Below are positions 9,102 to 38,174 of a stretch of DNA of 40,159 nt, piece by piece. The notes beneath the pieces are model-generated. The model saw nothing but the letters and a program-made list of their open reading frames with translations. It did no database searches and was not told the origin of the DNA. The translations under genes and the position numbers were made by a program. The first letter of the stretch is position 1; every line of letters starts with the position of its first letter. The stretch comes from Anaerolineae bacterium (GTDB lineage Bacteria; Chloroflexota; Anaerolineae; S140-20), in contig JALUTT010000081.1 of NCBI GenBank assembly GCA_027021705.1, forward strand, positions 1 to 40,159. Direction: 5' to 3'.

Positions 9102-9113
9102 CGTGCACCTGGG

Positions 9114-9172
9114 GTAACTGTTCACCCTCCCGCAGGTTAGGCGCGTTTCGACCTGCGGGAGGGTAGGCTGAA
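9114..9172. repeat. MITE/REP-like family B, short (internally deleted) copy
   Basis: GTAACTGTTCACCCTCCCGCAGGT...ACCTGCGGGAGGGTAGGCTGAA. It is the reverse complement of the ends of the element at 18422-18543. Confidence 0.75.
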
Positions 9173-9194
9173 GGGAATGCCGGAACTCTGAACG

Positions 9195-11618: not shown

Positions 11619-11654
11619 GGGAAGCTGCCGTTGCTGGTCGGCTGTTCCCCTTCG

Positions 11655-11663
11655 TGGTATAAT
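11655..11663 (+). promoter_or_regulatory. Extended -10 promoter
   Basis: TGGTATAAT in the intergenic region. No properly spaced -35 was found. Confidence 0.55.
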
Positions 11664-11705
11664 CTCCTCGGTCCTGCCATCTTTGTAAGCTGTGGCGGAC
11701 CCGGC

Positions 11706-11740
11706 AACCGTCGGGGCGGTTCCCCGACGGTTCCCCTTTG
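11706..11740 (+). terminator. Hairpin (terminator/attenuator-like) in the leader of the 11768 gene
   Basis: AACCGTCGGGG-cggtt-CCCCGACGGTT followed by CCCCTTTG. Confidence 0.45.
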
Positions 11741-11767
11741 TTCCCTGATCTTCATCAGGAGCCGAGG

Positions 11768-13660: not shown

Positions 13661-13677
13661 GCAAATGAGGAACGAGG

Positions 13678-24156: not shown

Positions 24157-25371
24157 CTACCAAACCGTCAGCTCTCCCTCCGCCAGCCGGCGGGTGAAGG
24201 TGCCGATGCCGGCCAGCTCCCGGTCCATCACCGCCATTACCGCCTCCTGCACGTCCTCCAGAGTGACGTCTGGCTCCAGGATGAGCTGGGAAGCGGCGAT
24301 GAGGGGCTGGTCAATGGGCTTGCCGATCTGGCTGCAGAGCCAGACCGTCACCTCGCGGATACCCTCCACTTCCTCGTAGATCTTGCGGGCCAGCTCGTGG
24401 CTGAGGAGGTTGTAGATCTTCCCCACGTGGCTGGCCGGGTTCTTGCCCGCTGCGGCCTCGCTGGTCGCCGGCCGGTTGAAGGCGATGACACCGTTCACCC
24501 GGTTCCCCCGCCCCACCTGGCCACAGTCGGCCCCCTCGGCCGAGGTCCCCAGCACCGTCAGGTACATCCCCCCCTCGCCCCGCTCCGGGTCGTCCAGGGT
24601 GTTGATGTCCACCGTCACCTGGTCCAGCGTCTGCTGCTGGCGCTCCACAAACTGCTGGAGGGTCTCCTGGATGGCCGCCTTCCGCTCGAAATAGGTCCTG
24701 GCGTCAGGGATGAAGCGGTCCACGAAGGCGAGGGCGACGGTGAGCGTCAGGTGGCGACCGAAGCGGTAGCCCATCACCTTGATGTCCTCGCCGGCCTCGG
24801 GGTGAGCCGCCTTGAAGGCGGTGGAGTTGAGGTAGCGCTCCGTCGCCAGGACCAGCCGCTCCGTCTCCGTCAAGGGGTAATAGCCGACGCCGGCCGAGGT
24901 GTCGTTGGCCCCCACCACCTCCCGCTCGAAGATGTCCACCAGTTCGGGCGAGCCCGGCTTGATCTCGTTCTGGAAGAGGACGTGGACTTCGGGGTCCACG
25001 AAGCGCAGATGGCCGCGAATCCAGGCTTTCGCCGTGGCCTCGGCGATCTCGCCGACGGGGATGCGCACTCCCCGGTACTCGTAGGTGGCGCGGTCGCCGA
25101 AGACCAGGCGCATCGGCTCGATCACCGTCCCGCCACCCAGCCGGGGGGCGGTCTGGCCGGCCACCAGCAGCCCCTTGTCCAGGTTGTGGTGCAGGATGCG
25201 ACCAAAGGTGTCCAGGTAGGCACGGGAGAGTTCGACGCTGACCGCTTCCATAATGGCGTCGCAGATGGAGTCGGGGTGGCCGACCCCTTTGCGCTCGACC
25301 AGTTCGACCGGCTGCTCTTCCACCGGCAGGTTGGGAACCTCTTCAACGAAGATGTTCCGGGATGGGGCCAT
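24157..25371 (-). CDS. mat: S-adenosylmethionine synthetase, archaeal type
   Basis: 'ELVERKGVGHPDSICD', 'HHNLDK', 'GANDTS', 'GEDIKVMG', 'GTSAE..D.GQVGRGNR' and 'EAAAGKNP..HVGKIYN'. AGGAGG RBS before ATG 25371. Confidence 0.92.
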   Translation of the reverse strand: MAPSRNIFVEEVPNLPVEEQPVELVERKGVGHPDSICDAIMEAVSVELSRAYLDTFGRILHHNLDKGLLVAGQTAPRLGGGTVIEPMRLVFGDRATYEYRGVRIPVGEIAEATAKAWIRGHLRFVDPEVHVLFQNEIKPGSPELVDIFEREVVGANDTSAGVGYYPLTETERLVLATERYLNSTAFKAAHPEAGEDIKVMGYRFGRHLTLTVALAFVDRFIPDARTYFERKAAIQETLQQFVERQQQTLDQVTVDINTLDDPERGEGGMYLTVLGTSAEGADCGQVGRGNRVNGVIAFNRPATSEAAAGKNPASHVGKIYNLLSHELARKIYEEVEGIREVTVWLCSQIGKPIDQPLIAASQLILEPDVTLEDVQEAVMAVMDRELAGIGTFTRRLAEGELTVW

Positions 25372-25398
25372 CGCACACCTCCTGCTTGCTCGCAGCTT

Positions 25399-25540
25399 CT
25401 GTTCTCCGGGGCTTACGGAGAACTCCTGCCCGGTTCCTGCTTCGTCGAGGCTGCCGGCGTCGTGGCCGGCCTTACCGCCTCTCCACAGGCGTTCGGGGCC
25501 GCGCCCCCGGTTCCGGCGGAACCCGCCGTACCGCTGAGGT
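25399..25540 (-). ncRNA. Predicted TnpB omega-RNA scaffold / IS right end (approximate bounds)
   Basis: Overlaps the tnpB 3' end. Contains GAAGCAGGAA and the terminal hairpin GTTCTCCG-taagccc-CGGAGAAC. TnpB omegaRNAs are known to derive from this position. Confidence 0.5.
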
Positions 25541-26356
25541 TTCTGAGGTTGATGGCAGCATTGAGGTCTCGGTCCAACACCGCCCCGCAATGGGGACAAG
25601 TCCACTCCCGGTCGGACGGCCTCAACCCTTCGTGGATCGCTCCGCAGCGATGGCAGGTCTTGCTGGAGGGGAAGAAGCGGTCGGCGACGCGGAGTTGGCT
25701 GCCCGACCAGGCGGCCTTGTACGTCAACTGTCGGCGGAACTCGTAGAAGCCCACGTCGGAGATGGCCCGGGCCAGGCGGCGGTTCTTCAACATCCCGCCC
25801 ACGTTCAGGTCCTCGATGACGATCTCGCGCGGCCTCTCGCCATCGGGCTTGGTTCTCGCCACGATGGCGGCGGTGGCCTTGTGGAGGGCGTCCTGTCGGA
25901 CATTATACAGGCGATGGTACAAACGGGCAAGCTTCCGGCGGGTCTTCTCGTAGTTCCTGCCGCCGCGCTTGCGCCGGGCCAGTTGGCGCTGGAGCCGGCG
26001 CAGCTTCCTCCGGGCCTTCTCCAGGGGGCGGGGGGCCTCGAAGCGCCGGCCGTCGCTCAACACGGCCATCGCCCGGACACCCAGGTCAACGCCGAGGGGC
26101 TCGCCGGTGGCCGGCCTAACCTCCACCTCTTCGCGCACCTGGACGCTGACGAACCAGCGCCCTGCCCGCTCCGACACGGTGGCCGAGAGGATGTGGGCGT
26201 CGGTCGGGATGTAGCCGCGCTCCTTGAGGCGGAGCCAGCCGATGCGCGGCAGCCGGATGCGGTCGTGCTCCACGCGGATGGCCCCATCAACGCGGAAGCG
26301 GAGCGGGCTGCGCTTGCGGGATTTGAACCGGGGGAAGCCCGGCTTCTCCCCGCTCG
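25413..26356 (-). pseudogene. tnpB: 5'-truncated IS200/IS605/IS607-type RNA-guided endonuclease TnpB
   Basis: RuvC motifs 'GVDLG', 'IVIEDL' and 'DRDLNAAINL', Zn finger CHRC..CPHC, and 'PGFPRFKS'. The N-terminal HTH region is missing and replaced by MITE A sequence. No tnpA is present. Confidence 0.85.
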
Positions 26357-26470
26357 CGGTGATTACCCACAAGTGAGCGAGAGAGTGGTCCGTAGCAGGC
26401 CGTCCACGAATTTCTCACCAATGCACGAATGAGGCGGTCCTTAATTCGTGTATTCGTGCCCCATTCGTGG
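26357..26470. mobile_element. MITE-like family A, right-truncated copy abutting tnpB
   Basis: Near-identical to 3530-3653. It lacks the 10-bp internal duplication and the right TIR. Confidence 0.75.
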
Positions 26471-26528: not shown

Positions 26529-26573
26529 GAAAACAGAAGTGCCCCTTGGGAAGCGCGGCTTCCCAAGGGGCAC
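26529..26573 (-). terminator. Intrinsic terminator of the minus-strand catabolic operon
   Basis: 16-bp stem GTGCCCCTTGGGAAGC/GCTTCCCAAGGGGCAC followed on the minus strand by TTCTGTTTTC. Confidence 0.8.
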
Positions 26574-26596
26574 CCGCGATCCAAAACCGGCTCCCC

Positions 26597-27706
26597 TCAC
26601 GCGCCGAAGAACTCCCGGATCACCTGGACGGCCATCCGGTTCTCCTCCTCGGTCCCAATGGTGACGCGGAAGAAGCCGTCGCTGCCGTACATCTCCGGCT
26701 GAGGCCGGAAGATCAGCCCCCGCTCCTGGGCGAAGGCCACCATATCCTTCCCTTTCTTCCCGGCCCCACCCCCGTCGAAGAGGATGTAGTTGCCATAAGA
26801 GTGGAAGACGGTCAGCCCCGGCACATCCTTCAGCGATTCCTCAATGTAGCGGACCTGCTGGTTGTTGAACTCGACCCGCTTCCGCAACGCCTCGGTGTCC
26901 TCCAGGGCCGCCAGGGCCGCCCAGAGGGAGATCGTCCCCACGTTCCAAGGCAGCAGGGTGGCGGCGATCTGGCCCACCACCTCCTTGTCCCCCAGCAGGT
27001 AGCCGAAGCGGAGGCCGGCCAGCCCGTAGGCCTTGGAGAGGGTGCGGGTGATGATGACGTTGGGGTACTGCTTCGTCAGCTTCACCTGGGACCGCTCCAG
27101 GCCGGCGAACTCCACGTAGGCCTCGTCCACGACGAAGGGGATCCCCGTCTCGGCAATGCGGACGAAGTCGGCGCTGTCCATAAAGTTGCCGGTGGGGTTG
27201 TTGGGGTTGGCGATGACGATGATCTTCGTGCGAGGGGTGATGGCATCGAGGATGGCGTCGGGGTCGAAGCGGAACTCCCCCCCCTCGCGGTCGTAGATCA
27301 TCGGCACGGAGACGAGCTTGCCACCCAGGACGGCGCACCGCAGCTTGTAGATGCCGAAACAGGGGGTGTGCTGGATCACCTCATCGCCCGGCTGAAGGAA
27401 GCTGCGGAAGATGAGGTCGAAGATCTCGCTCGACCCGTTGCCGATGACCACGTTCTCGGGGCCGTCCAGCCCGTTGATCTCGGCGATCTTGGCGCGGACG
27501 ATGCCCCCCCGGTCGGGATAGCGGTTGGCCATCTTCGCGTACTTGTAGATGGTCTCCAGGACCTTGGGGGAGGGCTCGAAGGGGTTCTCGTTGGACATCA
27601 TCCGGTGGAGGTCCGGATTCTGCCAGGCCAACTCGATGTGGGGCGAGATGTACATCTTCTGCCCCCGGAGCCAAGGCACGAAGTAGTCTTCGATTCGCTT
27701 TTTCAT
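26597..27706 (-). CDS. PLP-dependent aminotransferase class I/II, HisC/CobD-like
   Basis: 'SNENPF', 'NRYPD', 'GNGSSE', 'NPNNPTG', 'VDEAY' and the PLP-Lys motif 'RTLSKAYGLAGLRFGY'. The gene is not in a his operon. Confidence 0.88.
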   Translation of the reverse strand: MKKRIEDYFVPWLRGQKMYISPHIELAWQNPDLHRMMSNENPFEPSPKVLETIYKYAKMANRYPDRGGIVRAKIAEINGLDGPENVVIGNGSSEIFDLIFRSFLQPGDEVIQHTPCFGIYKLRCAVLGGKLVSVPMIYDREGGEFRFDPDAILDAITPRTKIIVIANPNNPTGNFMDSADFVRIAETGIPFVVDEAYVEFAGLERSQVKLTKQYPNVIITRTLSKAYGLAGLRFGYLLGDKEVVGQIAATLLPWNVGTISLWAALAALEDTEALRKRVEFNNQQVRYIEESLKDVPGLTVFHSYGNYILFDGGGAGKKGKDMVAFAQERGLIFRPQPEMYGSDGFFRVTIGTEEENRMAVQVIREFFGA

Positions 27707-27739
27707 CGCTGTATCTCCTGCGTGATGCTGGCGCGCCAC

Positions 27740-28948
27740 CTAGCCGGTGGGGACGGCCTCCCGCACCAGGGCGATGCGCTCGGCGACGAAGGCTTCCAGG
27801 CCGTTGGCCGCCTTAGAGAACTGCTCGATGGTGTAGAGGGTCGCCGGATGCGTGTTGAACTGCTCCAGGGCCATCCCGTTGGGATCGTAGGCCTGGATGG
27901 CGTAGGGGATGCGCATCAGCTTGTCCATTACCTCCTCGGGCACCTCCTCCTCGATCTGGGGCCGGAAGTGGAGGCCGTCGCCGATGGCGAAGAGGGGCTC
28001 CAGGACGTAGGGTGGGAAGGTGAAGACGATCTCCCCGCCGGCCAGCTTCTCGATGTCCCAGAAGCGAGGCTTCCCCGCCACCACCGGGCCGTGGCGCAGC
28101 GAGCAGGCCAGCAGCTTGCTGACCGCGCCCCGGTCCTGGAGGATGCGGTAGGCCCGCCGGAAGACGGCGATGCCGAACCAGTGCTTGTCCTGCCAGGTGA
28201 GCTCGATCCCCCGCCGTCGGGCCTGCTCCACCAGCGCCTTGCGCTCGGTCAGCCGACCGATCATCATCGTGATGACGGAGCGCCAGCGGGTGAGGTCCAC
28301 GCCCTTCTCCTGGGCCTGGGCCACCCCCCGCTCGACCGCCTGGGAGGCGGCCAGGATCTGGGGCAGGGTGAAGCAGGTGGTCACGTTGGTGGAGATGCCC
28401 CGCGAGGTCAGGACCTCCAGCACTTCGATGCCCTCCTGGCTGGCCGGCACTTTGATCATCACGTTGGGCTGCAAGGCGGACAGCTCCTCGGCCTGCTGGA
28501 TCATAATCTCCTTCTCGGTGAAGAGCCGGGGGTCGAGCTGGCCGGAGATCCAGCCGTACCGACCGTTGGAGGCCTCGAACATAGGCAGGAACATCTCCGC
28601 CCCCCGCTTCACCACCTCCTTGTAGGTGGCCCAGAAGACCGCCTTCTGGTCCAGGTCGGGATGGGCGCGGATGAAGTCGTCCACCCACCGGCTCCAGAAC
28701 TCGGGGTCGGCCTGCACCGCCTTCAGGGAGAGGGGCGGGTTGGTCGTGCAGCCTCGGAAGACGCTCCGGGCCGGGTCCTCGACGACGAAGAGCCGGCGGA
28801 GCTGCTCCTCCAGCACCGGTCGCCGCTCCGGGGAAGCCGCATCCAACATCTTCTGGGTCCACTGCTCATAGACCAGCGGCGACGAGTCCCACCAGACTTC
28901 CATATCGGGGTTTGTCTTCAGCAGCCGTTCGACGGGGCTCTCGATCAT
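27740..28948 (-). CDS. Transaldolase/fructose-6-phosphate aldolase family protein (divergent)
   Basis: 'WWDS', 'GCTTNPPL', the Schiff-base Lys in 'NVMIKVPA', 'NVT', 'IGRL' and 'CSLR'. AGGAGG RBS. Confidence 0.85.
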   Translation of the reverse strand: MIESPVERLLKTNPDMEVWWDSSPLVYEQWTQKMLDAASPERRPVLEEQLRRLFVVEDPARSVFRGCTTNPPLSLKAVQADPEFWSRWVDDFIRAHPDLDQKAVFWATYKEVVKRGAEMFLPMFEASNGRYGWISGQLDPRLFTEKEIMIQQAEELSALQPNVMIKVPASQEGIEVLEVLTSRGISTNVTTCFTLPQILAASQAVERGVAQAQEKGVDLTRWRSVITMMIGRLTERKALVEQARRRGIELTWQDKHWFGIAVFRRAYRILQDRGAVSKLLACSLRHGPVVAGKPRFWDIEKLAGGEIVFTFPPYVLEPLFAIGDGLHFRPQIEEEVPEEVMDKLMRIPYAIQAYDPNGMALEQFNTHPATLYTIEQFSKAANGLEAFVAERIALVREAVPTG

Positions 28949-28969
28949 TGGGGTCCTCCTGTGGTTGCG

Positions 28970-29012
28970 TAGTGCGTGTAACGTGTAACGGGATGTGTGT
29001 AACGTGTTCTGC
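28970..29012. repeat. Degenerate heptamer tandem repeat (TGTAACG-like)
   Basis: gtgcgtgtaacgtgtaacgggatgtgtgtaacgtgt lies between the oxidoreductase and transaldolase genes. Confidence 0.55.
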
Positions 29013-29015
29013 GTC

Positions 29016-31454
29016 TCAAGCGCGGATGCGCTCACCTTGGGGGTCCCAGAGGGGCTCGCGCACCACGACGGCGTCAATCCGCTCGCCCAAAATCTCCACG
29101 TCCAGCCGGGTTCCCACGGCGGCGTGCTCGACGGGCAGGTAGCCGTAGGCGATGCTCTTACCCACCGTGTAGCCGTAGCCGCCGGAGGTCACCCAGCCGA
29201 TGACCTGGTCGCTGCCCCGAAGGCGGATGGGCTCCTTGCCGATCACCACCGCCGTGGGGTCGGCCAGGGTCAGGCAACACAGCTTTCGGCGTATCCCCTC
29301 GGCCTTCTGCCGCACCAGCGCCTCCCGACCGATGAACTCCCCCTTGTCCAGCCGGACGGCGAAGCCCAGGCCCGCCTCGAAGGGGGTATCGTCGGGGGTG
29401 ACGTCGGCGCTCCAGTAGCGGTAGCCCTTCTCCAGCCGGAGGGAGTCGAGGGCCCGGTAGCCGGCCGGCACCATCCCCTCCGGCTCCCCCGCCTCCCACA
29501 GCGTGTCCCACAGCCCTTGGCCGTACTCCATCGGGCAGTAGAGCTCCCAGCCCAACTCCCCCACGTAAGTGACCCGCAGGGCCAGGACCGGCACGTAGCC
29601 GACGGTGATCCACCGGGCCGTCATGTAAGGGAAGCCCTCGTTGGAGAGGTCGTCCCGGCTGACCCGCTGCAGGATCACCCGAGCCCGAGGCCCCCAGAGC
29701 CCCAAGCAGGCATAGACGGAGGTAACGTCCTCGACCAGGACCGAGCCATCCTCGGGCATGTGCAGCCGCAGCCAGGAGAGGTCGTGCTGGCCGAAAGCGG
29801 TGCCGGTGATGAGCAGGAAGCGGTCGTCCGCCAGCCGTGTCACCGTGAGGTCGCACTCTATGCCGCCCCGGCGGTTGAGCATCTGGGTGTAGACAACGCT
29901 GCCGATGGGCCGGTCCACGTTGTTGGCACACAGCCGTTGCAGGAAGGCGAGGGCACCGGGGCCCCGCACCTCGATCTTGCTGAAGGAGGTCTCGTCGAAG
30001 AGGCCGGCCCGCTGGCGAGTGGCTTGGTGCTCCACGCCGATGGCCGGTGACCAGTGGCGGCGGACCCAGCCCCGGGGCTCGTAGCCGTGGTCGGCCACCT
30101 CCTCGTGGGGGGCGTACCAGTTGGGGCGCTCCCAGCCGGCCTTCTCGCCGAAGACGGCCCCCAGGGCCTTCTGCCGGTGGTAGGCCGGGGAGAGGCGCAA
30201 CCCTCGGGCCGACGTGCGCTCCTCGTAGGGGTAATGGATGTCGTAGTGGCGGGAGGCGGACTCCAGGGTCCGGGCCAGGATATAGTCCCGGCTGGCGTAG
30301 TTCGGCCCGAAACGGCGCACGTCCAGTCGCCAGACGTTCCACTCCGGCTCCCCCTCGACGATCCACTCGGCCATCACCTTGCCGATGCCGCCGGCGCCGG
30401 CCAGCCCGTGGGCGCAGAAGGCGGCGGCGACCCAGAACCCCTTGACCGGCGTGGGGCCCAGCAGGAACTCACCGTCCGGCGTGAACCCCTCCGGCCCGTT
30501 GAGCAGCTTGATGATCTGGGCCGTCTCCAGCACCGGCACGCGCCGGATGGCGTTCTCCATCAGGGGGGCGAAGCGGTCCCAGTCGGGGGGCAGCAAGCGG
30601 TAGTGGAAGTCGGGCGGGATGCCGTCCACCCCCCATGGGGCGGGATCGCGCTCGTAGCCGCCGACGATCAGCCCTCCCACCTCCTCGCGGAAGTAGACCA
30701 GCAGGTCTGGGTCGCGCATGCTGGGGAGGTCCCGGTGGACCCCTTCGATGGGGCGGGTGATCAGGTACTGGTGGGCCAGGGGGATGACGGGGAGGCTCAG
30801 GCCGACCATCCGGGCGATCTCGTCGGCCCACTGTCCGGCGGCGTTCACCACCACCTCGGTCTCGATGGTCCCCCGGTTCGTCACGACCTGGTGGACCCGT
30901 CCCTTTTTGAGGCGGATCGCCTGCACGCTGGTCTGGGTGTAGAAGCGAGCGCCCTGGGCCTTGGCACCGGCGGCTAGGGCCATCGTCAGGCCGCTGGGGT
31001 CCACCCGCCCGTCGGTGGGCAGGTAGACGGCGCCCAGCACGCCGTCGAGGCTCATCAGGGGGAAGAGCTCCTGGGCTTCGCGGGGGCCGATCAGCTCGAG
31101 GGGCATCCCGAAGGAGCGGGCCAGGCCGACCAGCCGTTTCAGCTCCTCCATTCGCTCCGGTGACGAGGCCAGCCGCAGGCTGCCGGTCTGATACCAGCCG
31201 GGGTCGTGGCCGGTCTCGTCCTTGAGCCGTCGGTAGAGGTCGGTGCTGTAGGCCATCATCCGGGTGAGGTTGACGTCGGAGCGGAGCTGCCCGACCAGGC
31301 CGGCTGAGTGCCAGGTCGAGCCGCTGGTCAGTTCGTGGCGTTCGACGACGACGACGTCGGTCCACCCCATCCGGGTGAGATGGTAGGCGATGCTGCACCC
31401 GCCGACGCCGCCACCGACGATGACGACTTGCGCGTGGGAGGGGAAGTCGGTCAT
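29016..31454 (-). CDS. GcvT-family FAD-dependent oxidoreductase (dimethylglycine/sarcosine dehydrogenase-like)
   Basis: Rossmann 'VIVGGGVGG', the covalent-FAD His motif 'SGSTWHSAG', 'FTPDG', 'GWERPNW', GcvT 'RVTYVGELGWEL' and 'LDSLRLEKGY'. Confidence 0.92.
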   Translation of the reverse strand: MTDFPSHAQVVIVGGGVGGCSIAYHLTRMGWTDVVVVERHELTSGSTWHSAGLVGQLRSDVNLTRMMAYSTDLYRRLKDETGHDPGWYQTGSLRLASSPERMEELKRLVGLARSFGMPLELIGPREAQELFPLMSLDGVLGAVYLPTDGRVDPSGLTMALAAGAKAQGARFYTQTSVQAIRLKKGRVHQVVTNRGTIETEVVVNAAGQWADEIARMVGLSLPVIPLAHQYLITRPIEGVHRDLPSMRDPDLLVYFREEVGGLIVGGYERDPAPWGVDGIPPDFHYRLLPPDWDRFAPLMENAIRRVPVLETAQIIKLLNGPEGFTPDGEFLLGPTPVKGFWVAAAFCAHGLAGAGGIGKVMAEWIVEGEPEWNVWRLDVRRFGPNYASRDYILARTLESASRHYDIHYPYEERTSARGLRLSPAYHRQKALGAVFGEKAGWERPNWYAPHEEVADHGYEPRGWVRRHWSPAIGVEHQATRQRAGLFDETSFSKIEVRGPGALAFLQRLCANNVDRPIGSVVYTQMLNRRGGIECDLTVTRLADDRFLLITGTAFGQHDLSWLRLHMPEDGSVLVEDVTSVYACLGLWGPRARVILQRVSRDDLSNEGFPYMTARWITVGYVPVLALRVTYVGELGWELYCPMEYGQGLWDTLWEAGEPEGMVPAGYRALDSLRLEKGYRYWSADVTPDDTPFEAGLGFAVRLDKGEFIGREALVRQKAEGIRRKLCCLTLADPTAVVIGKEPIRLRGSDQVIGWVTSGGYGYTVGKSIAYGYLPVEHAAVGTRLDVEILGERIDAVVVREPLWDPQGERIRA

Positions 31455-31494
31455 CAAGTCACCTCGTTTTCTGCTGGGGCTCACGCCGGAGTCC

Positions 31495-31546
31495 ATTATA
31501 CATCAGCCGGTTCAAACTTGCAAATTTGTCCAAAAACTGCTATAAT
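31495..31546. promoter_or_regulatory. Bidirectional sigma70 promoter sharing one palindromic -35
   Basis: ATTATA (31495-500), 17 bp, TTGCAA (31518-23), 17 bp, TATAAT (31541-46). Confidence 0.75.
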
Positions 31547-31591
31547 AGAAAAGAAATCACTCAATCTCGATCATTTATCCCGGTGCTAAGG

Positions 31592-32410
31592 ATGAGCAAA
31601 TCCCTCATTCCTGCTCAGCGGCGTGAGCGAATACGGGAGTACTTGCAGGTCCACCGTGTGGCCCGCAACGCCGACCTGAGCCAGATGCTGGGGGTCTCGG
31701 AAGCCACCATCCGTCGGGACCTAGAGTGGCTGGAGGGTCAGGGATTTGTAGAGCGCACCCACGGGGGGGCCATTCTCAGCCAACGGATGCGCTTTGAACC
31801 GGCCTACGCTCAGCGAGCCTGTGTCCATCCTGAGGAGAAGCGGTGGATTGGTGCCGCTGCGGCTGCCCTGATCGAAGATGGGGACATCGTCTTCCTCAGC
31901 AGCGGTACGACGACGACCCAGATGATCCCCTACATCCGTCCAGGGGCAGACATCACGGTCGTCACCAACAACGTGAGCGTCGTGTTGGAGGCTCGCGACC
32001 CTGGCTTTGAACTGATCTTGCTGGGGGGAACGTTCCGCCCTCAGTCCAACTCCGTCGTCGGTCGCTTCGCCACCGCCGCCCTGCGGCAGATCTACGCCAG
32101 CAAGTGCTTCATCGGCGTGGACGGTATCAGCCCCAAGTATGGTTGCACGGTTCCCACCGGTGTTGAGGCCGAGATCATCCGCCTGATGATCGAGCGCACG
32201 CGGGGGATGGTCATCGTGCTTGCCGATCATAGCAAGTGGGGGGTAGTCTCCAATTTTGAGGTCGCTTCCCTCGATCAAGTGCACAAACTGGTCACCGACA
32301 AGAAGTTGAACCCCAACGCCTTCACTGAGTTGGCGGCCCGCTCCGTCGAGGTTGTTATCGCTGGCGACGACCAGGAATCAGGAGGTTCCGGCCAGCCTGA
32401 CAGAGCGTAG
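31592..32410 (+). CDS. DeoR/GlpR-family transcriptional regulator
   Basis: HTH 'LSQMLGVSEATIRRDL', 'RTHGGA', 'EKRWIG', 'SGTTT' and 'LADHSKW'. Confidence 0.95.
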   Translation: MSKSLIPAQRRERIREYLQVHRVARNADLSQMLGVSEATIRRDLEWLEGQGFVERTHGGAILSQRMRFEPAYAQRACVHPEEKRWIGAAAAALIEDGDIVFLSSGTTTTQMIPYIRPGADITVVTNNVSVVLEARDPGFELILLGGTFRPQSNSVVGRFATAALRQIYASKCFIGVDGISPKYGCTVPTGVEAEIIRLMIERTRGMVIVLADHSKWGVVSNFEVASLDQVHKLVTDKKLNPNAFTELAARSVEVVIAGDDQESGGSGQPDRA

Positions 32411-32433
32411 GGTTGATCCGCGTTGAACCCTGG

Positions 32434-32462
32434 TTGACACCCCTAATTTCGCATGTTATAAT
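32434..32462 (+). promoter_or_regulatory. Consensus sigma70 promoter of the ABC transporter operon
   Basis: TTGACA, 17 bp, then TATAAT with an extended -10 TG. Confidence 0.85.
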
Positions 32463-32740
32463 CAGATAACCCAAGGAGATTGCTCCCCCCACCTCTGAGG
32501 CTCTAGGCAGATCAGAGGGGAGAAGGGCACAGACCCCTCATGTCCATACCCCCGACGTCCCACGATACCCCCTATAGGAGCCTGTACGCGAGTCGGATGG
32601 GCCAACCTTGCGTTCCCGGCAAGGTTGTGGATTTAGACCGCCGTTGTGTCTAAATCGTGGTCGTATGGGCTAGCCTCGCGGCCCCCGTCAGCGAGGTCGG
32701 AGCGCCGCTCCGAGTCTGCACACCGAGAGGAGGTCTAACG

Positions 32741-33784
32741 ATGTCGTCCTTTCGAGCCCACCGCCGTCTCGCCGTAGTGATCGCCCTCACGTTGATCCTG
32801 GCCATCGTGCTCGGGGCATGCGGGGGGGCAAAGAAGAAGACCAAGGTCGTCATCTATACAGCAAAGGAGAACGAGGAGATCGCCGAGTACATCCCGGTGG
32901 CGGAGAAGGCGCTGCCGGACCTCGATCTGGAGGTCCTGCGTCTCTCCACAGGCGACCTCACCGCCCGGCTGTTGGCCGAGAAGGACAACCCGCAGGCCGA
33001 CGTGATCTGGGGCGTTGCGGCGACCAGCATGCTGATCTTCGAGAAAGAGGGGATGCTGGAGCCCTACGCGCCGAAAGGGGTGGAGAAGATCCTCCCGCAG
33101 TTCAAGTCGCCGAAGGACCCTCCCACCTGGGTCGGCGTGGATGCCTATCTGACCGCCTTCTGCGTCAACAAGGAGGTCGCCAAGAAGAACAACCTGCCCA
33201 CGCCTACTTCGTGGAAGGACCTGCTCGATCCTGTCTACAAGGGGCATATCGTGATGCCCAATCCGGCCTCCTCAGGCACCGGCTTTATGTTCGTCTCCAG
33301 CGTGCTGCAGGGCCTGGGTGAGGAGGAAGGGTGGAACTACCTGGACAAGCTGGATGACAACATCGCCATCTACACCAAGTCGGGCTCCAAGCCGTGCAAG
33401 CTGGCGGCCGCCGGCGAGTACGGCATCGGCATCTCCTTCGCTTTCGTCGCTGCCCGTCTCATCAAGGACGGCGCCCCGCTGGAGATGGTCTTGCCGGCCG
33501 AAGGTTCCGGCTACGAGGTGGAGGCCAATGCCCTGGTCAAGGGCACCGATGTGCCTGAGGCGGCCAAGCGCTTCCTGGACTGGGCCATCAGTGACGAGGC
33601 GATGGCTCTGTACGCCAAGTACTTCGCCGTCGTCGCCAAGCCCGGCTTCCCCGTGCCGGAAGGTATGCCGCCGGACACCCCTGATCGGCTCTTCCCGATG
33701 GACTTCAAGTGGTCGTCCGACAACCGGGATGCGATCCTGAAGCAGTGGACCGAGCGGTTCGCTGCCAAGACCGAGAAAGACTAA
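32741..33784 (+). CDS. ABC transporter substrate-binding lipoprotein, putative 2-aminoethylphosphonate/Fe(III)-type family
   Basis: Lipobox LGAC, 'IYTA', 'STGDLTARLLAEKDNPQADVIWG', 'MPNPASSGTG' and 'YTKSGSKPCK'. These resemble the putative 2-AEP ABC substrate-binding family (PhnS2/AepS-like). Confidence 0.85.
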   Translation: MSSFRAHRRLAVVIALTLILAIVLGACGGAKKKTKVVIYTAKENEEIAEYIPVAEKALPDLDLEVLRLSTGDLTARLLAEKDNPQADVIWGVAATSMLIFEKEGMLEPYAPKGVEKILPQFKSPKDPPTWVGVDAYLTAFCVNKEVAKKNNLPTPTSWKDLLDPVYKGHIVMPNPASSGTGFMFVSSVLQGLGEEEGWNYLDKLDDNIAIYTKSGSKPCKLAAAGEYGIGISFAFVAARLIKDGAPLEMVLPAEGSGYEVEANALVKGTDVPEAAKRFLDWAISDEAMALYAKYFAVVAKPGFPVPEGMPPDTPDRLFPMDFKWSSDNRDAILKQWTERFAAKTEKD

Positions 33785-33923
33785 CCCTTGCGTGGATCAT
33801 CCCAAGGAGGGTGGAGGGCCTGCCCCGAAGGCCCATCCCCCTCCCGCCGGGGCCGGTCTCTCAGAGCCCCTTGGCCGGGATGGTCGGGTGCCAGGAGGCC
33901 GGCCCCCTAGCAGGAAATCCAAG

Positions 33924-35051
33924 ATGGAACGCTCCAAAGGAACCTCTCCTGAACCCTATCTCCGTATCATCGGTGTGACCAAGACCTTCGGCAACCTGGT
34001 GGCTGTGGACGATTTCTCGCTGGACGTGATGGAGGGGGAGTTCATCTGCCTCCTGGGTCCCAGCGGGTGCGGGAAGACGACGCTGCTGCGGATCATCGCC
34101 GGGCTGGAGGAGCCCAACACCGGGAAAATCTACCAGGCCGGTCGGGAAATCACCCATCTTCCCCCTCGGGAACGGGACTTCGGCATCGTCTTTCAGTCCT
34201 ACGCCCTCTTCCCCAACCTGACGGCTGCCCAGAATATCGCCTACGGGTTGCAGAGCCGCAAGCTTCCCAAGGAGCAGATCGCCAAGCGGGTGGCGGAGTT
34301 GCTGGAGATGGTGGGCCTGCCCGACGTGGGGCACAAGTACCCTTCCCAGCTCTCGGGCGGGCAGCAGCAACGGATCGCCCTGGCCCGCGCCTTGGCCACT
34401 TCGCCGGGCCTGTTGCTGCTGGATGAGCCGCTGTCGGCCTTGGACGCCCGCGTGCGGGTCTCCCTCCGTCTGGAGATCAAGCGGTTGCAGCGCCGGGTAG
34501 GGGTGACCACCATCTTCGTCACCCACGATCAGGAAGAGGCCCTGGTGATGGCCGACCGCATCGTGGTGATGCGGGCCGGTCGGATTGAGCAGGTAGGCAC
34601 GCCGGAGGAGATCTACCGCCATCCGGCCACCCCCTTCGTGGCCGACTTCGTCGGCGTGATGAACTTCCTGCCCGGATACGCCGGGCCGACGCCCAATCGG
34701 GTGCGGTGTGGCTCCCTGGAGTTCCAGTGTGCCAACCCCCACGACCTGGCTCCGGACACGCCGGTGATGCTAACCATCCGGCCCGAGGACATCCGGCTGG
34801 GCGTTGACGACCTCTCTGCCCCCAACACCACCACCACCCGAGTCGAAGAGATCGAGTTCTTGGGCTCCTTCTACCGCCTGATGCTCCGGCTGGACGCTCT
34901 GGGTGACACAACCCGCCTGGTGGCCGAGGTCTCCAGTAACCGGATGCGAGACCTAAAGATCGAATATAAGAGCACCCTCTCGATTCACCTGCCGCCCTCA
35001 CTGCTCCACGTCTATCCCGCTGAGATGAGCGGGATAGAGGCCAGAGCGTGA
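33924..35051 (+). CDS. ABC transporter ATP-binding subunit (putative 2-AEP type, TOBE domain)
   Basis: Walker A GPSGCGKT, 'FQSYALFPNL', LSGGQQQR, LLLDEP and VTHDQ. Confidence 0.93.
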   Translation: MERSKGTSPEPYLRIIGVTKTFGNLVAVDDFSLDVMEGEFICLLGPSGCGKTTLLRIIAGLEEPNTGKIYQAGREITHLPPRERDFGIVFQSYALFPNLTAAQNIAYGLQSRKLPKEQIAKRVAELLEMVGLPDVGHKYPSQLSGGQQQRIALARALATSPGLLLLDEPLSALDARVRVSLRLEIKRLQRRVGVTTIFVTHDQEEALVMADRIVVMRAGRIEQVGTPEEIYRHPATPFVADFVGVMNFLPGYAGPTPNRVRCGSLEFQCANPHDLAPDTPVMLTIRPEDIRLGVDDLSAPNTTTTRVEEIEFLGSFYRLMLRLDALGDTTRLVAEVSSNRMRDLKIEYKSTLSIHLPPSLLHVYPAEMSGIEARA

Positions 35052-35139
35052 GGTCTTGGAGATCGGGTGAAGCCCTATCCCCCGTCGCCTGGACGGCGTC
35101 CTAGGGCGCTGGCCGGCGGTGGGAAGGAAGGTCGATCCT

Positions 35140-36897
35140 ATGACGACTCCAGCCATCAGCCCTACTATCCCCAGGCCGGTCGTGGACCGGCGCATCCGTC
35201 GGCAGCGGGTCCGCCAGCGATTGGGCAGGGATGAGATCCTGCGCCGTGCCCTTTTCGTCCTGATGGGAGTGTGGCTCTACCTCTTCTTGATCTACCCCCT
35301 GTTCCGGCTGCTGATCCGCAGCCTGCAGAACAAGGAGGGAGCCTTCGTCGGCCTGGCCAACTACGCGGCCTACTTCTCCTCGGCGACCACCTCGGCCTCC
35401 CTTCGCCACAGCCTCAACATTTCCATCCTCAGTATGGTGATCACGGTCTCGCTGGCCTTCATATACGCCTACGGCCTGACCCGGATGACGTTGCCGGGGA
35501 AGCGGTTTTTCCGCATTGTGGCGATGCTCCCCATCTTCGTCCCCTCGCTGGTCCAGGCCCTGGCTTTCATCTACATGTTTGGCAACAATGGCCTCTTCAC
35601 CCGCATCTTTGGCCTGAACATCGGGTTGTACGGTCCGGTGGGCATCGTGATGTCGGAGGTCTTTTACGCCTTCCCCCACGCCTTGATCATCCTGATGACG
35701 GCCCTGGCCCTGGCCGATGCCCGCCTTTATGAAGCGGCGGAGTCGCTGGGAGCCTCGGGCCTGCGCATCTTCTTCACCGTCACCCTGCCGGCCATCAAGT
35801 ACGGCCTGATGAGCGCTGCCTTTGTTGTCTTCACACTGGCCATCACCGACTTCGGTGCTCCCAAGGTGGTGGGGGGCAACTACGACGTGCTGGCCACGGA
35901 CATCTACAACAAGGTGATCGGACAGCAAAACTTCGAGATGGGGGCCACCATCAGCACGCTGCTTCTGGTGCCGGCGATGATCGCTTTCATCCTGGACCGG
36001 CTGGTCCAGCGACGGCAGGTGGCCCAGATCACAGCCGAGGTCAAGCCCCTCGCCCCCAGGAAGTACCACCCCTTGGTCCAAGGGACGGTCCTCACTTTCT
36101 GTATCCTGATCGTCATCTTCATCCTCAGCATCTACGGGATCGTGATCGTGGGAGCCTTCACCAAGTATTGGCCCTACGACCTCTCCCTGACGCTGAAGAA
36201 CTTCAAGACCTTCTACGTGGCCGGCGCTCAACACAAGAGCGGTGCCCTCCACGTCTTGGGGAACAGCATCCAGATGGCGACGGGCACGGCCATCTTCGGG
36301 ACCGCGATCGTCTTCATCAGCGCCTACCTGATCGAGAAGGGCCGGGGGCTGCGGTGGGTCCGTTCCGTCCTCTACCTGCTCTCCATTATGCCCCTCTCCA
36401 TTCCGGGGATGGTGCTGGGCCTGGCCTACGTCTTCACCTTCAACGATCCCTCCAGCCCGCTCAACAGGCTGTATGGGACGATGGCCATCCTGGTCATCTC
36501 CACCATCTTCCATTACTACACCGTCCCCTTCCTCACGGCGACGACGGCCTTGAAGCAGTTGGATCCCGAGTTCGAGGCCATCGGGGAGTCGCTGAACGTG
36601 CCCTTCTACCGCACCTTCTGGCGGGTCACGGTGCCGATGACGCTGCCGGCCATCATCTCCATCGCGATGTACTTCTTCCTCAACGCGATGGTCACCCTCT
36701 CGGCCATCGTCTTCCTCTTCGTCCCCGGCAGGGAGCTGGCCTCGCTGGCGGTGATGCTGCTGGATGATGCGGGGGAGAGTGCCCAGGCGATGGCGATGTC
36801 CCTGCTGATCCTGGTGACGGGGCTGGCAGCCCGAGGGTTCTTCTATCTGCTGACCCGAGGGGTCGAGCGCCGCACACAGGCCTGGACTCAGGGCTAA
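35140..36897 (+). CDS. ABC transporter fused double permease (putative 2-AEP type)
   Basis: Two EAA-type loops ('LYEAAESLGA', 'EFEAIGESLNV') and 'TDFGAPKVVGGNYDVLATDIY'. Confidence 0.92.
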   Translation: MTTPAISPTIPRPVVDRRIRRQRVRQRLGRDEILRRALFVLMGVWLYLFLIYPLFRLLIRSLQNKEGAFVGLANYAAYFSSATTSASLRHSLNISILSMVITVSLAFIYAYGLTRMTLPGKRFFRIVAMLPIFVPSLVQALAFIYMFGNNGLFTRIFGLNIGLYGPVGIVMSEVFYAFPHALIILMTALALADARLYEAAESLGASGLRIFFTVTLPAIKYGLMSAAFVVFTLAITDFGAPKVVGGNYDVLATDIYNKVIGQQNFEMGATISTLLLVPAMIAFILDRLVQRRQVAQITAEVKPLAPRKYHPLVQGTVLTFCILIVIFILSIYGIVIVGAFTKYWPYDLSLTLKNFKTFYVAGAQHKSGALHVLGNSIQMATGTAIFGTAIVFISAYLIEKGRGLRWVRSVLYLLSIMPLSIPGMVLGLAYVFTFNDPSSPLNRLYGTMAILVISTIFHYYTVPFLTATTALKQLDPEFEAIGESLNVPFYRTFWRVTVPMTLPAIISIAMYFFLNAMVTLSAIVFLFVPGRELASLAVMLLDDAGESAQAMAMSLLILVTGLAARGFFYLLTRGVERRTQAWTQG

Positions 36898-36940: not shown

Positions 36941-36969
36941 TTGACATCCAAAACGTTTTGGAATATAAT
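36941..36969 (+). promoter_or_regulatory. Consensus sigma70 promoter of the LacI/sugar ABC operon
   Basis: TTGACA (36941-46), 17 bp, TATAAT (36964-69). Confidence 0.88.
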
Positions 36970-37154: not shown

Positions 37155-38174
37155 ATGCCCGTTACCCTCCGCGACATTGCCGAAAAGGTCGGTTATTCCA
37201 TCACGACGGTCTCCCGGGCCCTGGCCGGCTACGACGACGTGGCCGAAGAAACGCGCCGGCTCATCCTGCAGACGGCCCAGGAGATGGGGTACCATCCCAA
37301 CATCCCGGCTCGGCAGCTCCAGCGCCGACGGACCGACACCCTCGGGTTCGTCATCGCCACCTTCGGGCCACGCTTTTCTGACCCTTTCCTTAGTGAGTTG
37401 CTGGCCGGCATCGGCAACGAGGCGGCCCGTCACGAATTCGACCTGCTGGTCGCCACCCACCCGCCTCGCTCGGCCAACGAACTGCACGCTTACCGACGGC
37501 TGGTACGGGGACGCCGGGTAGATGGCCTCATCATCACCCGAACCCGGGTCCACGATGAACGGATCGCCTACCTGCTGGAGCAGAAGGTCCCTTTCGCCAC
37601 CTTCGGCCGTAGCGAGGTCGAAGGCGACTTCCCTTGGGTGGACGTGGATGGGGAGGCTGGACTGGTGCAGGTGACCCGTCACCTCATCCAGCAAGGCCAT
37701 CGGCGCATCGCCATCATCTTGCCTCCGGCCGATCTGATGTTCTCCCGTTTTCGGGAGGCCGGCTTCCGCCGGGCTATGGCTGAGAGCGAGTTGCCCGTCC
37801 AAGAGGCTTGGGTAACCTGGGGGGACCTGACGGAGCAGGGAGGATACCAGGCCGCCCGTCGCCTACTGGGCCAGCATCCCGCGCCCACGGCGATCATCGC
37901 CGGCAACGACGTGATGGCCATCGGGGCGATCCGGGCCGCCCGAGAGCACGGCCTGACGGTGGGACGAGAGATCGCCATCGCCGGCTTTGACGACATCCCG
38001 ATGGCCGAGCACACCACGCCGCCCCTGACCACCCTACGTCAGCCCATCTACGAGATCGGGCGACGGCTCTGTCGTATGCTCATCGCCCTCCTGCGCGGTG
38101 AGACTTTGGAGCACCCCCACGTGCTCCTGCAACCGGAACTGGTCATCCGGCAGTCCACGGTCCCCGAAGCGTGA
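37155..38174 (+). CDS. LacI-family transcriptional regulator
   Basis: 'TLRDIAEKVGYSITTVSRAL', 'MGYHPN', 'GFDD' and 'PPLTT'. Confidence 0.96.
   Translation: MPVTLRDIAEKVGYSITTVSRALAGYDDVAEETRRLILQTAQEMGYHPNIPARQLQRRRTDTLGFVIATFGPRFSDPFLSELLAGIGNEAARHEFDLLVATHPPRSANELHAYRRLVRGRRVDGLIITRTRVHDERIAYLLEQKVPFATFGRSEVEGDFPWVDVDGEAGLVQVTRHLIQQGHRRIAIILPPADLMFSRFREAGFRRAMAESELPVQEAWVTWGDLTEQGGYQAARRLLGQHPAPTAIIAGNDVMAIGAIRAAREHGLTVGREIAIAGFDDIPMAEHTTPPLTTLRQPIYEIGRRLCRMLIALLRGETLEHPHVLLQPELVIRQSTVPEA

Follow-up and report, generated by a model that had tools for sequence, protein, structure and literature searches.

A proposed phosphoethanolamine-type catabolic cluster with an atypical transaldolase-family protein in an Anaerolineae bacterium

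What does a cell take up and degrade when an ABC importer named for 2-aminoethylphosphonate (2-AEP) is encoded beside an amine-oxidizing flavoenzyme, a HisC-like aminotransferase and an atypical transaldolase-like (TAL-like) protein? This question is raised by a 40,159-nucleotide stretch of an Anaerolineae bacterium (assembly GCA_027021705.1, contig JALUTT010000081.1), referred to below in its full length as the window, in which Pfam and NCBIfam scans found seven intact open reading frames (ORFs) within 26537-36897, at or near the positions assigned to them in a first-pass annotation. Three of these genes form a minus-strand operon, transcribed in the order DAO-GcvT flavoenzyme, TAL-like protein, aminotransferase; the operon is divergent from a deoR gene, which is followed by the three genes of a PhnS2T2U2 importer. 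We propose that the cluster serves to degrade phosphoethanolamine, along with the N-methyl and N,N-dimethyl forms of it, derived from phospholipid or phosphocholine head groups, and we give the whole route a probability of roughly 0.5. A phosphoethanolamine-type substrate appears slightly favored when considered by itself, whereas the conversion of glycolaldehyde phosphate to xylulose 5-phosphate by the TAL-like enzyme is put forward tentatively, at a little under even odds.

In the proposed route, the PhnS2T2U2 system would import a phosphate ester, from which the DAO-GcvT protein, a flavoenzyme resembling dimethylglycine dehydrogenase (DMGDH), would strip N-methyl groups and pass the one-carbon unit to tetrahydrofolate; the N-methyl and N,N-dimethyl forms would be extra inputs where DAO-GcvT is present, the window included. 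The aminotransferase would then convert phosphoethanolamine to glycolaldehyde 2-phosphate, probably with pyruvate as the amino acceptor, and the TAL-like enzyme would join glycolaldehyde phosphate to a dihydroxyacetone unit, either by transfer (fructose 6-phosphate and glycolaldehyde phosphate giving xylulose 5-phosphate and glyceraldehyde 3-phosphate) or by an FSA-like addition of free dihydroxyacetone. The xylulose 5-phosphate would enter the pentose phosphate pathway, and DeoR, a regulator of the sugar-phosphate type, would control the operon. The first-pass annotation had already outlined a scheme in which import is followed by N-dealkylation, transamination and a step of the transaldolase type, and the conserved gene contexts fit this general scheme. 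Its amino-polyol phosphate or phosphonate substrate is revised here to a two-carbon (C2) amino-alcohol phosphate, on account of the kinase alternation, the partner genes and the PhnS2 residues described below, from which it follows that the transamination product would be an aldehyde, glycolaldehyde phosphate, rather than a ketose. Where aldol cleavage or transfer had been suggested, the transaldolase-type step is retained, and cleavage is replaced by C–C bond formation giving xylulose 5-phosphate.

Support for this proposal comes from gene neighborhoods. With the TAL-like protein as the signature gene, 17 loci were taken from species-representative genomes and 80 from metagenomes, the latter being the best 80 of a set in which 593 of 598 pattern matches encoded a relative. 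Partner families were defined by Pfam and NCBIfam annotation of picked ORFs in 22 loci and were scored in all loci by tblastn (E ≤1e-20, at least 50% coverage). The 96 loci with a TAL-like gene were reduced to 53 having at least 6 kb of flank and then to 41, window included, after a collapse at 85% TAL identity, which left out 43 short loci and 12 near-duplicates; the dropped duplicates include L009, L010, L011 and L038, which carry DAO-GcvT together with electron-transfer flavoprotein (ETF) genes, whereas their representative L012 is without DAO-GcvT. The aminotransferase gene lies within 9 kb of the TAL-like gene in 21 of the 41 loci, PhnS2T2U2 (at least two of its three parts) is found in 10, and a choline/ethanolamine-family kinase in 7, with one locus (L075) having both kinase and importer. 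All 16 loci with importer or kinase contain the aminotransferase, whereas neither occurs in any of the 20 loci without it. DAO-GcvT occurs in nine loci, eight of them with the aminotransferase; the ninth, L043, is on a contig that ends 246 bp past the TAL-like gene. A class-II aldolase and a HAD hydrolase are each found in 8 of the 41. The transporter-linked loci have the gene order PhnS2-T2-U2, GntR, aminotransferase, TAL, often with alanine dehydrogenase, and their proteins are only 38-53% identical to those of the window, showing that the association is old and spans deep divergence. That these genes act as a functional unit, as had been suggested from the window alone, is thus borne out by co-occurrence across the 41 non-redundant loci, and we regard the functional link as very probable.

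The features of the cluster are the following.

26575-26537, minus strand: terminator-like hairpin with an 18-pair stem (11 GC pairs), a 3-nt loop and a T-rich tail, 22 nt past the aminotransferase stop.
26597-27739, minus strand: HisC-like class I/II pyridoxal 5′-phosphate (PLP) aminotransferase, 380 aa (PF00155, 1.3e-50).
27740-28948, minus strand (ORF 27740-29077): atypical TAL_FSA-family protein, 402 aa, with ATG 28948 behind AGGAGG.
29016-31496, minus strand: fusion of DAO, FAO_M, GCV_T and GCV_T_C domains (Pfam), 826 aa.
31495-31546, both strands: divergent promoter-like sites of operon and deoR, TTGCAA-17-TATAAT (plus strand 31518-31546, minus strand 31523-31495), consensus matches only.
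31593-32410, plus strand: DeoR-family regulator; the ORF is open from TTG 31526, and the surrounding sequence makes ATG 31593 the likely start.
32434-32462, plus strand: sigma-70-type consensus promoter-like site ahead of phnS2, with 12/12 hexamer matches and an extended TG.
32657-33784, plus strand: PhnS2-type substrate-binding protein (TIGR03261, 447.9 bits against a cut-off of 392.75).
33792-35051, plus strand: PhnT2-type ABC ATPase with a TOBE_2 domain (TIGR03265, 509 bits against 457.7).
35119-36897, plus strand: PhnU2-type fused double permease with two BPD_transp_1 stretches (TIGR03262, 684.8 bits against 593.25).

The aminotransferase start abuts the TAL-like stop (27740/27739), and with a start at ATG 28948 the TAL-like protein agrees with its homologues over the full length. 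In this region, terminator-like sites taken together are not enriched (7 found, 6.2 expected), and the hairpin closing the operon is by far the longest of the seven; promoter-like sites are enriched (6 found, 1.6 expected). The ORFs, the profile matches and the 18-pair hairpin together confirm the first-pass description of a three-gene minus-strand operon with its own terminator, divergent from deoR and next to an ABC importer.

All three parts of the importer exceed the NCBIfam equivalog cut-offs of families named "putative 2-aminoethylphosphonate ABC transporter", a name that presumably rests on genomic association with 2-AEP catabolic genes. This association is not seen here, the importer standing beside the aminotransferase/TAL pair in all 10 loci that have it. 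In the bacterium's own genome (94.9% complete, 183 contigs), PhnX, PhnW and PhnA gave nothing above their cut-offs and PhnJ gave no match of any score, phnZ not having been searched genome-wide, and no phosphonate-catabolic Pfam family was detected on 22 further long ORFs picked from the window for the scan, in line with the earlier statement that the window contains no phosphonate genes. The "putative 2-AEP" transporter would thus have no recognized 2-AEP pathway to serve. Relatives of the cluster use an alternative input, an amino-acid/choline-type permease with a kinase of the Choline_kinase/APH family. Importer and permease-plus-kinase alternate, and since a kinase yields an O-phosphate ester, it is most simply assumed that this ester is also what the importer takes up. 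No homologue of these kinases or permeases was found by tblastn in the bacterium's own genome, which suggests that it depends on ABC import. Four loci (L004, L005, L075 and L083) have PHO4/PhoU_div phosphate transporter genes on the flanks of the cluster, as would be expected if an organophosphate is the source of carbon and nitrogen. As an observation on the related loci, L005 has a 300-aa ORF without an assigned family (5467-6369) at the position where L004 has its kinase.

These data also bear on a different reading, in which the cluster degrades 2-AEP or N-methyl-2-AEP: the importer takes up the phosphonate, DAO-GcvT demethylates it, the aminotransferase gives phosphonoacetaldehyde, and the TAL-like protein either replaces PhnX, cleaving the C–P bond on a lysine imine, or builds a phosphono-sugar. 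In addition to the family names of the transporter, the invariant lysine and aspartate of the TAL-like protein favor this reading, as PhnX works via a lysine Schiff base with an aspartate; any use of 2-AEP would need a non-canonical route in view of the missing PhnW, PhnX, PhnA and PhnJ, and the phosphate exporter genes near the cluster in relatives also speak for this reading. However, in seven loci the same aminotransferase/TAL pair is fed by a choline/ethanolamine-type kinase, mostly with a permease, which points to a phosphate ester and not to a C–P compound. The partners of the TAL-like gene (transketolase, class-II aldolase, CbbY-type phosphatase, DhaKL and FGGY kinases) belong to sugar-phosphate chemistry, the sugar-phosphate binding residues of the TAL-like protein are invariant, and the nearest solved relatives of PhnS2 bind phosphate esters. 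We therefore consider a phosphonate pathway, in either variant of the TAL-like role, decidedly unlikely.

The nearest solved relatives of PhnS2 are AfuA (4R72-75), which binds the 6-phosphates of glucose and fructose as well as sedoheptulose 7-phosphate (PMC4546632), and P5PA, which binds PLP (PMC8427247 and the PDB molecule name). The PDB chain numbering of AfuA is offset by +2 from the numbering of the paper, and with this offset all five named AfuA residues fit. In PhnS2, the positions of the two AfuA phosphate ligands, S37 and T150, are each occupied by Thr (motifs RLSTG and SSGT), those of its sugar ligands, H205 and D206, by Phe and Val, and E229 is kept. These ligand-site motifs are kept in 10 of 11 aligned cluster-linked copies, the exception being a divergent second copy in L080. 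Judged by these residues, the site fits a small phosphate ester with an ammonium group, and PhnS2 is proposed to bind phosphoethanolamine-type ligands.

The same site can be weighed against the possibility that the substrate is another amino-alcohol or amino-sugar phosphate, such as serinol phosphate, aminopropanediol phosphate or an aminodeoxy-polyol phosphate, which would be converted to a ketose or aldose phosphate and then rearranged or cleaved by the TAL-like enzyme. The HisC family is generally known to accept substituted 2-amino-1-phosphates, and a DeoR regulator together with a TAL-family enzyme suggests sugar-phosphate intermediates. The hexose and heptose phosphates reported for AfuA, the closest solved PhnS2 relative, in PMC4546632 also speak for such a substrate. 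However, both sugar-ring ligands are lost in all aligned cluster-linked PhnS2 copies but the second one of L080, the alternative uptake genes encode choline/ethanolamine-type kinases and amino-acid/choline-type permeases, and the methyl-removing enzymes point to choline-derived bases. Moreover, serinol phosphate or 3-amino-1,2-propanediol phosphate would give dihydroxyacetone phosphate (DHAP) or glyceraldehyde 3-phosphate directly, with no need for a dedicated transaldolase, and the CbbY-type phosphatase of relatives fits xylulose 1,5-bisphosphate (XuBP), the adduct of the C2 phosphate and DHAP. A substrate of this kind is thus judged unlikely.

The TAL-like protein gives 110.6 bits with PF00923, and all NCBIfam transaldolase models fall far under their cut-offs (best model 105.8 bits against 367; TIGR00875, the FSA model, 45 bits against 245.95). 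Its AlphaFold2 model has a pLDDT of 93.3, and the best 40 of at least 500 Foldseek matches in the PDB are all transaldolases or transaldolase-fold aldolases; the best transaldolase matches have TM scores of 0.69-0.78 (best TM, by target, 0.78) at 16-22% identity. Identity to TalB in a multiple alignment is 25%. Within the family, 13 of the 14 other aligned members are 56-79% identical to the window protein, the remaining one (L019) being 45% identical. The mapped residues are as follows.

Schiff-base lysine: TAL-like K166, TalB K132, FSA K85.
Aspartate: TAL-like D21, TalB D17, FSA D6.
Asparagine: TAL-like N70, TalB N35, FSA N28.
Threonine: TAL-like T190, TalB T156, FSA T109.
Phosphate site: TAL-like R232, TalB R181, FSA R134.
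Phosphate site: TAL-like S283, TalB S226, FSA S166.
Phosphate site: TAL-like R285, TalB R228, FSA none.
Position of the classical catalytic glutamate: TAL-like Q137, TalB E96, FSA Q59.
Position of the FSA catalytic tyrosine: TAL-like M229, TalB F178, FSA Y131.

All nine residues are invariant in the 15 aligned members. The marks of the superfamily, the Schiff-base lysine with Asp, Asn and Thr and the Arg/Ser/Arg sugar-phosphate site, are present in the TAL-like protein; the classical glutamate of TalB is replaced by Gln137 in 15/15, whereas the genome's canonical transaldolase keeps it, and only half of the FSA pair is found, with Gln137 matching Gln59 and Met229 standing in place of Tyr131. 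By its conserved residues, the TAL-like family is a member of the superfamily that is neither a classical transaldolase nor an FSA, and the earlier view of an atypical transaldolase holds on both counts, profile scores and catalytic positions. TalB variants E96Q/F178Y are said to have gained FSA-like aldolase activity. PDB entry titles give E96 and F178 as the residues exchanged in these variants; the N. gonorrhoeae variant E93Q (7oey) was considered as the equivalent of TalB E96 and dropped, the alignment showing a different residue. Compared with TalB and FSA of E. coli, the TAL-like protein shares the fold, the Schiff-base lysine, Asp, Asn, Thr and phosphate-binding Arg/Ser/Arg and has the FSA-like Gln at the position of Glu96. 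In contrast to both, it has Met at the Phe178/Tyr131 position and about 400 residues, with N-terminal and internal insertions and a C-terminal extension.

The genome also encodes a canonical transaldolase (contig C3, 299.6 bits to PF00923) and a short FSA-type enzyme with the FSA-type Gln and Tyr (contig C49), and a housekeeping role was rejected for the TAL-like gene. Relatives of the TAL-like protein are abundant in metagenomes (at least 593 matching stretches), number 3079 proteins at E 0.001 or better among 8000 candidates scored, and occur also in clusters labelled Pseudomonadota and Thermodesulfobacteriota. The gene has a patchy distribution over reference genomes; when the phylum was sampled, one of 400 other genomes had it, as did one of 30 relatives. 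In E. coli K-12 (L110, 860000-867000), fsaA adjoins a PFL-like glycyl-radical enzyme and its activase (ybiW, ybiY) and the sugar phosphatase ybiV; in L004 (17327-20607), a PFL-like enzyme and activase lie about 6 kb from the TAL-like gene, a likeness that may be coincidence.

HisC-family enzymes act on primary amines beside a CH2-O-phosphate group, as in histidinol phosphate or, in the case of CobD, threonine phosphate. The best solved relatives of the window aminotransferase are histidinol-phosphate aminotransferases, and it passes the HisC equivalog model TIGR01141 marginally (278.2 bits against a cut-off of 276.55). The genome's own hisC scores 332 bits, is located on contig C92 between hisD and hisB-hisH-hisA, and is 31% identical to the window copy. 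A housekeeping role in histidine biosynthesis was thus rejected, the better-scoring hisC being in the his operon and the window copy travelling with the TAL-like gene, in agreement with the first-pass view that this is no ordinary HisC. Alanine dehydrogenase, the usual companion of a pyruvate-dependent catabolic transaminase, adjoins in 9 of the 41 loci, suggesting that the enzyme is a true transaminase; we propose it to be a phosphoethanolamine:2-oxoacid transaminase, the 2-oxoacid probably being pyruvate.

In the flavoenzyme, all four domains of the DMGDH-type architecture are present, and its best solved relatives are DMGDH (E 3e-178, residues 17-820) and dimethylglycine oxidase. ETF alpha and beta genes adjoin DAO-GcvT in relatives. 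Eight of its nine occurrences are beside the aminotransferase/TAL pair, and this context argues for an N-methyl amine other than dimethylglycine or sarcosine; the protein is therefore proposed to be a tetrahydrofolate-linked N-demethylase of N-methyl- and N,N-dimethyl-phosphoethanolamine. Other methyl-removing genes are found in relatives, namely a non-pyrrolysine MttB-family gene in L005 and MtbB-, MtmB- and corrinoid-protein genes in L019. Some clusters (L030, L043, L053 and L093) have two DAO-GcvT paralogues, 43-58% and 71-73% identical to that of the window, a pairing reminiscent of dimethylglycine and sarcosine dehydrogenases, with one enzyme per methyl group. In a Thermoleophilia metagenome-assembled genome (L019, 2363-4174, minus strand), a dimethylamine-methyltransferase-like gene with one in-frame TAG lies beside the aminotransferase/TAL pair, as does a trimethylamine-methyltransferase-like gene with one in-frame TAG in L092 (14921-16480, plus strand). 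The TAG falls where the Pfam match splits, at profile positions 353/355 in L019 and about 341 in L092. Pyrrolysine methyltransferases act on free di- and trimethylamine, and we take these two bacterial genes to resemble them. Finally, a conserved 313-357-aa protein with a faint N-terminal metallophosphoesterase match (NF006988; L004:2866-3939, L005:2051-2992, L019:5727-6674 and L019:16349-17401) is always paired with an AA_permease_2-like membrane protein of about 600 aa adjoining the cluster; the pair may be a glycerophosphodiester-type head-group-releasing step with its transporter.

The fate of the aldehyde is addressed by the sugar-phosphate partners in relatives, which are either a transketolase, typical or divergent, or a HAD hydrolase together with a class-II ketose-bisphosphate aldolase. 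Among solved structures, this hydrolase is closest to the XuBP phosphatases of the CbbY type: AtCbbYA (4UAV) is matched with E values of 2e-64 and 5e-66 and the R. sphaeroides enzyme (4UAR/4UAT) with about 1e-40, the next solved relative after CbbY reaching only 81 or 46 bits. According to PMC10212915, an FBP-type aldolase makes XuBP from DHAP and glycolaldehyde phosphate, and CbbY converts XuBP to xylulose 5-phosphate. Six loci (L004, L005, L006, L008, L013 and L034) pair the class-II aldolase with a close CbbY homologue, which provides independent support for a glycolaldehyde phosphate intermediate and a xylulose 5-phosphate product. Whereas CbbY in plants and autotrophs repairs a Rubisco by-product, it would be a catabolic step in these relatives. 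The window has no class-II aldolase or CbbY-type phosphatase of this kind, nor do the compact transporter-GntR-aminotransferase-TAL loci, which in these cases leaves the aldehyde phosphate to the TAL-like enzyme itself. Loci with both systems may use them side by side, or the donor may be regenerated by the aldolase and phosphatase.

The TAL-like gene also has other companions. A full set of GntR, class-II aldolase, HAD, DhaL, TAL and DhaK is found in L006, L008 and L013, whereas L042 has HAD, DhaL, DhaK and TAL without aldolase or GntR. An enolase-superfamily dehydratase, a DHDPS-type aldolase and an FGGY kinase all accompany the TAL-like gene in L015 and L016; L020 has the DHDPS-type and FGGY genes, L058 and L082 the DHDPS-type gene alone, and seven TAL-like loci have no partner recognized by the seeds. 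One may speculate that the DhaKL context and the pentonate-type context, in which a dehydratase and an aldolase would release glycolaldehyde for a kinase, converge on the same C2 unit. In the Acidobacteriota-type loci (L015, L016 and L020), the TAL-like gene lies behind enolase-superfamily dehydratases, a DHDPS-type aldolase and an FGGY kinase, and L016 has an apiosidase-like glycosidase (2549-4429), a malectin-domain protein and a TonB-type receptor nearby; this context suggests a plant-sugar-acid pathway also ending at the TAL-like enzyme. A broader and still more tentative proposal, at somewhat under even odds, is that a widespread, undescribed route takes ethanolamine and choline as their phosphates, by demethylation and transamination, through phosphoethanolamine and glycolaldehyde 2-phosphate to xylulose 5-phosphate. 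The last step would be catalyzed by a transaldolase family of a new Gln/Met type, which in some lineages would act alongside a class-II aldolase and a catabolic CbbY.

Several points weigh against the phosphoethanolamine route. Its substrate and each of its chemical steps are deduced from gene context and conserved residues, and the tblastn seeds for the neighborhood families came from the same loci in which the families were then counted. In 20 of the 41 loci the TAL-like gene occurs without the aminotransferase, accompanied by DhaKL, by an FGGY kinase with a DHDPS-type aldolase, or by nothing recognized, which indicates that the TAL-like enzyme is not specific to amine catabolism. Five of the 21 aminotransferase loci have neither importer nor kinase, although in three of these (L030, L047 and L084) the contig ends less than 3 kb from the TAL-like gene on one side. 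2-AEP is a possible ligand of the importer, the families being named for it and the molecule being isosteric with phosphoethanolamine. DAO-GcvT could act on sarcosine or dimethylglycine, given its closeness to bona fide DMGDH, and in relatives methyl removal may not occur at the phosphobase level, if the TAG-bearing methyltransferases of L019 and L092 are any guide. Both known acid-base catalysts are missing from the TAL-like protein, and it may work by a chemistry unlike that of ordinary transaldolases or aldolases. In loci that have them, the products of the class-II aldolase and CbbY-like genes could alone convert glycolaldehyde phosphate to xylulose 5-phosphate, leaving the role of the TAL-like enzyme there unclear. 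No operator motif common to the divergent promoter region (31470-31600) and the region ahead of phnS2 (32400-32660) was detected, as the two have no 8-mer in common on either strand and no 14-mer match with up to three mismatches; co-regulation of transporter and operon thus lacks sequence support.

This last result would also be expected if the genes were juxtaposed by chance, that is, if an ordinary dimethylglycine or sarcosine dehydrogenase, a spare transaldolase, a spare HisC and an unrelated transporter had come to lie together. The proteins all belong to familiar families, with the aminotransferase only slightly above the hisC cut-off and DAO-GcvT matching DMGDH at E ~1e-178. However, many divergent lineages share the combination, importer and kinase being confined to aminotransferase loci, the genome has a separate canonical transaldolase, FSA-type enzyme and his-operon hisC, and the TAL-like family is well conserved (13 of 14 members in the range given above) yet far under every NCBIfam transaldolase cut-off. 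Chance juxtaposition is therefore regarded as very improbable.

Of the organic nitrogen and phosphorus compounds that membranes release, the head groups ethanolamine and choline are among the most abundant. Known routes of ethanolamine degradation are the EutBC ammonia-lyase and ethanolamine kinase with phosphoethanolamine phospho-lyase, the product being acetaldehyde. To our knowledge, bacteria process these head groups by the B12-dependent Eut lyase, by the phospho-lyase, via betaine or to trimethylamine, and all of these fates lead to acetaldehyde, glycine or trimethylamine. No EutB match was found in the bacterium's own genome. The phospho-lyase route also starts from phosphoethanolamine, and the Eut routes share the presumed substrate family. 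In contrast to both, the carbon in the proposed route would enter as a sugar phosphate rather than as acetyl-CoA, and the alanine dehydrogenase of relatives indicates a real transamination.

A closer parallel is provided by E. limosum, which phosphorylates choline and in which MthB demethylates phosphocholine, not choline, to N,N-dimethylaminoethanol phosphate, as stated in PMC12155760. The MthK/MthB/MthC/MthA system of that source resembles the proposed route in handling the base as a phosphate ester, in demethylating the phosphobase and in passing the methyl group to tetrahydrofolate, and relatives of the cluster carry a non-pyrrolysine MttB-family gene (L005) and a kinase beside the same core genes. 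However, the E. limosum pathway ends at N,N-dimethylaminoethanol and uses cobalamin methyltransferases and a serine-kinase-like MthK, whereas the window has a flavin/tetrahydrofolate DAO-GcvT and no kinase and would assimilate the full C2 skeleton via the aminotransferase and the TAL-like enzyme. The 2-AEP systems, PhnW/PhnX or PhnW/PhnY/PhnA with PhnSTUV, AepXVW or AepSTU, follow the same logic of ABC import with a family-6 binding protein and pyruvate-type transamination to an aldehyde (PMC8316502), and phosphate export is described there for use of the compound as a nitrogen source. They differ in that the window aminotransferase is HisC-like and not of the PhnW family, the next enzyme is of the transaldolase family, and the kinase-fed variants imply an O-phosphate ester. 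The sulfo-TAL route of sulfoglycolysis, with which the first-pass annotation had drawn an analogy, likewise has a dedicated transaldolase-family enzyme inside a catabolic cluster. The analogy is weak, and a close relationship was rejected, since the solved sulfofructose transaldolase BmSF-TAL gives a match of only E 1.8e-5, covering 110 residues; sulfoquinovose genes are absent.

A literature search, in which subscription journals mostly lay outside its reach, found no phosphoethanolamine transaminase or aminotransferase, no natural glycolaldehyde-phosphate pathway and no description of this gene combination, which had not been recognized from a described pathway at the outset either. The matches listed for "glycolaldehyde phosphate" were only prebiotic-chemistry papers and a note on XuBP synthesis. 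The cluster is thus a catabolic one built from known superfamilies, but with a new predicted route and a new predicted transaldolase subtype. If the proposal is correct, it would define a new entry point to central metabolism in which the phosphate is kept and the C2 unit enters the pentose phosphate pathway, amounting to a cycle for the assimilation of glycolaldehyde phosphate, in analogy to the sugar-phosphate cycles that fix formaldehyde. It would also supply a natural enzyme for the condensation of a C2 phosphate to a C5 phosphate, of interest to synthetic assimilation of glycolaldehyde or ethylene glycol, and a new mechanistic class in the transaldolase superfamily, without the Glu and without the Tyr catalyst. 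The PhnS2T2U2 "putative 2-AEP" systems beside an aminotransferase/TAL-like pair would be phosphoethanolamine-type importers, correcting a family-wide transporter annotation in gene surveys of the phosphorus cycle, and the C2 intermediate would also be the point at which the DhaKL and pentonate-type dehydratase/aldolase/kinase contexts of the TAL-like gene meet.

The regulator has an N-terminal HTH_DeoR domain (PF08220, 3e-15) and a C-terminal DeoRC domain (PF00455, 3e-43). Its orthologues, at 55-71% identity, are beside the cluster in L004, L005, L030 and L043; they go with Anaerolineae-type clusters, whereas GntR/UTRA regulators go with most other clusters. The phnS2 leader (32463-32656, about 190 nt) contains a short ORF, from ATG 32541 to TAA 32650. 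Searched against Rfam at gathering thresholds, the whole window had no match, so that this leader is no known riboswitch.

Directly past the operon terminator lies a TnpB/IS605 OrfB-type gene (25413-26372, minus strand; PF01385 and PF07282). The closest related locus, L005, holds the kinase-position ORF and class-II aldolase, HAD, PHO4 and PhoU genes, all of which the window is without, and in view of this gene content the compact form of the window may be the outcome of a rearrangement. At slightly lower window coordinates, likewise close behind the terminator, is an archaeal-type S-adenosylmethionine synthetase gene (24157-25605, minus strand; PF01941, E 4e-165), present in a bacterial genome of 62-72% GC; its Pfam match begins at ORF residue 83, and the true start is probably near 25359. 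Large envelope-type genes occupy 189-17349 on the plus strand, comprising tandem LysM and SdrD_B proteins (189-1736 and 1756-3381), two DUF2298 membrane proteins (3621-9101 and 9195-11618), one of which has 1826 aa and a PMT_2 domain, and a 1223-aa protein with PMT_2 and NHL repeats (13678-17349). On the other side, a second promoter-like site with 12/12 consensus matches (36941-36969, plus strand) stands right behind phnU2 and precedes a LacI-family regulator (37155-38174) with a family-1 sugar-binding protein (38323-39837), which resembles a separate sugar uptake unit.

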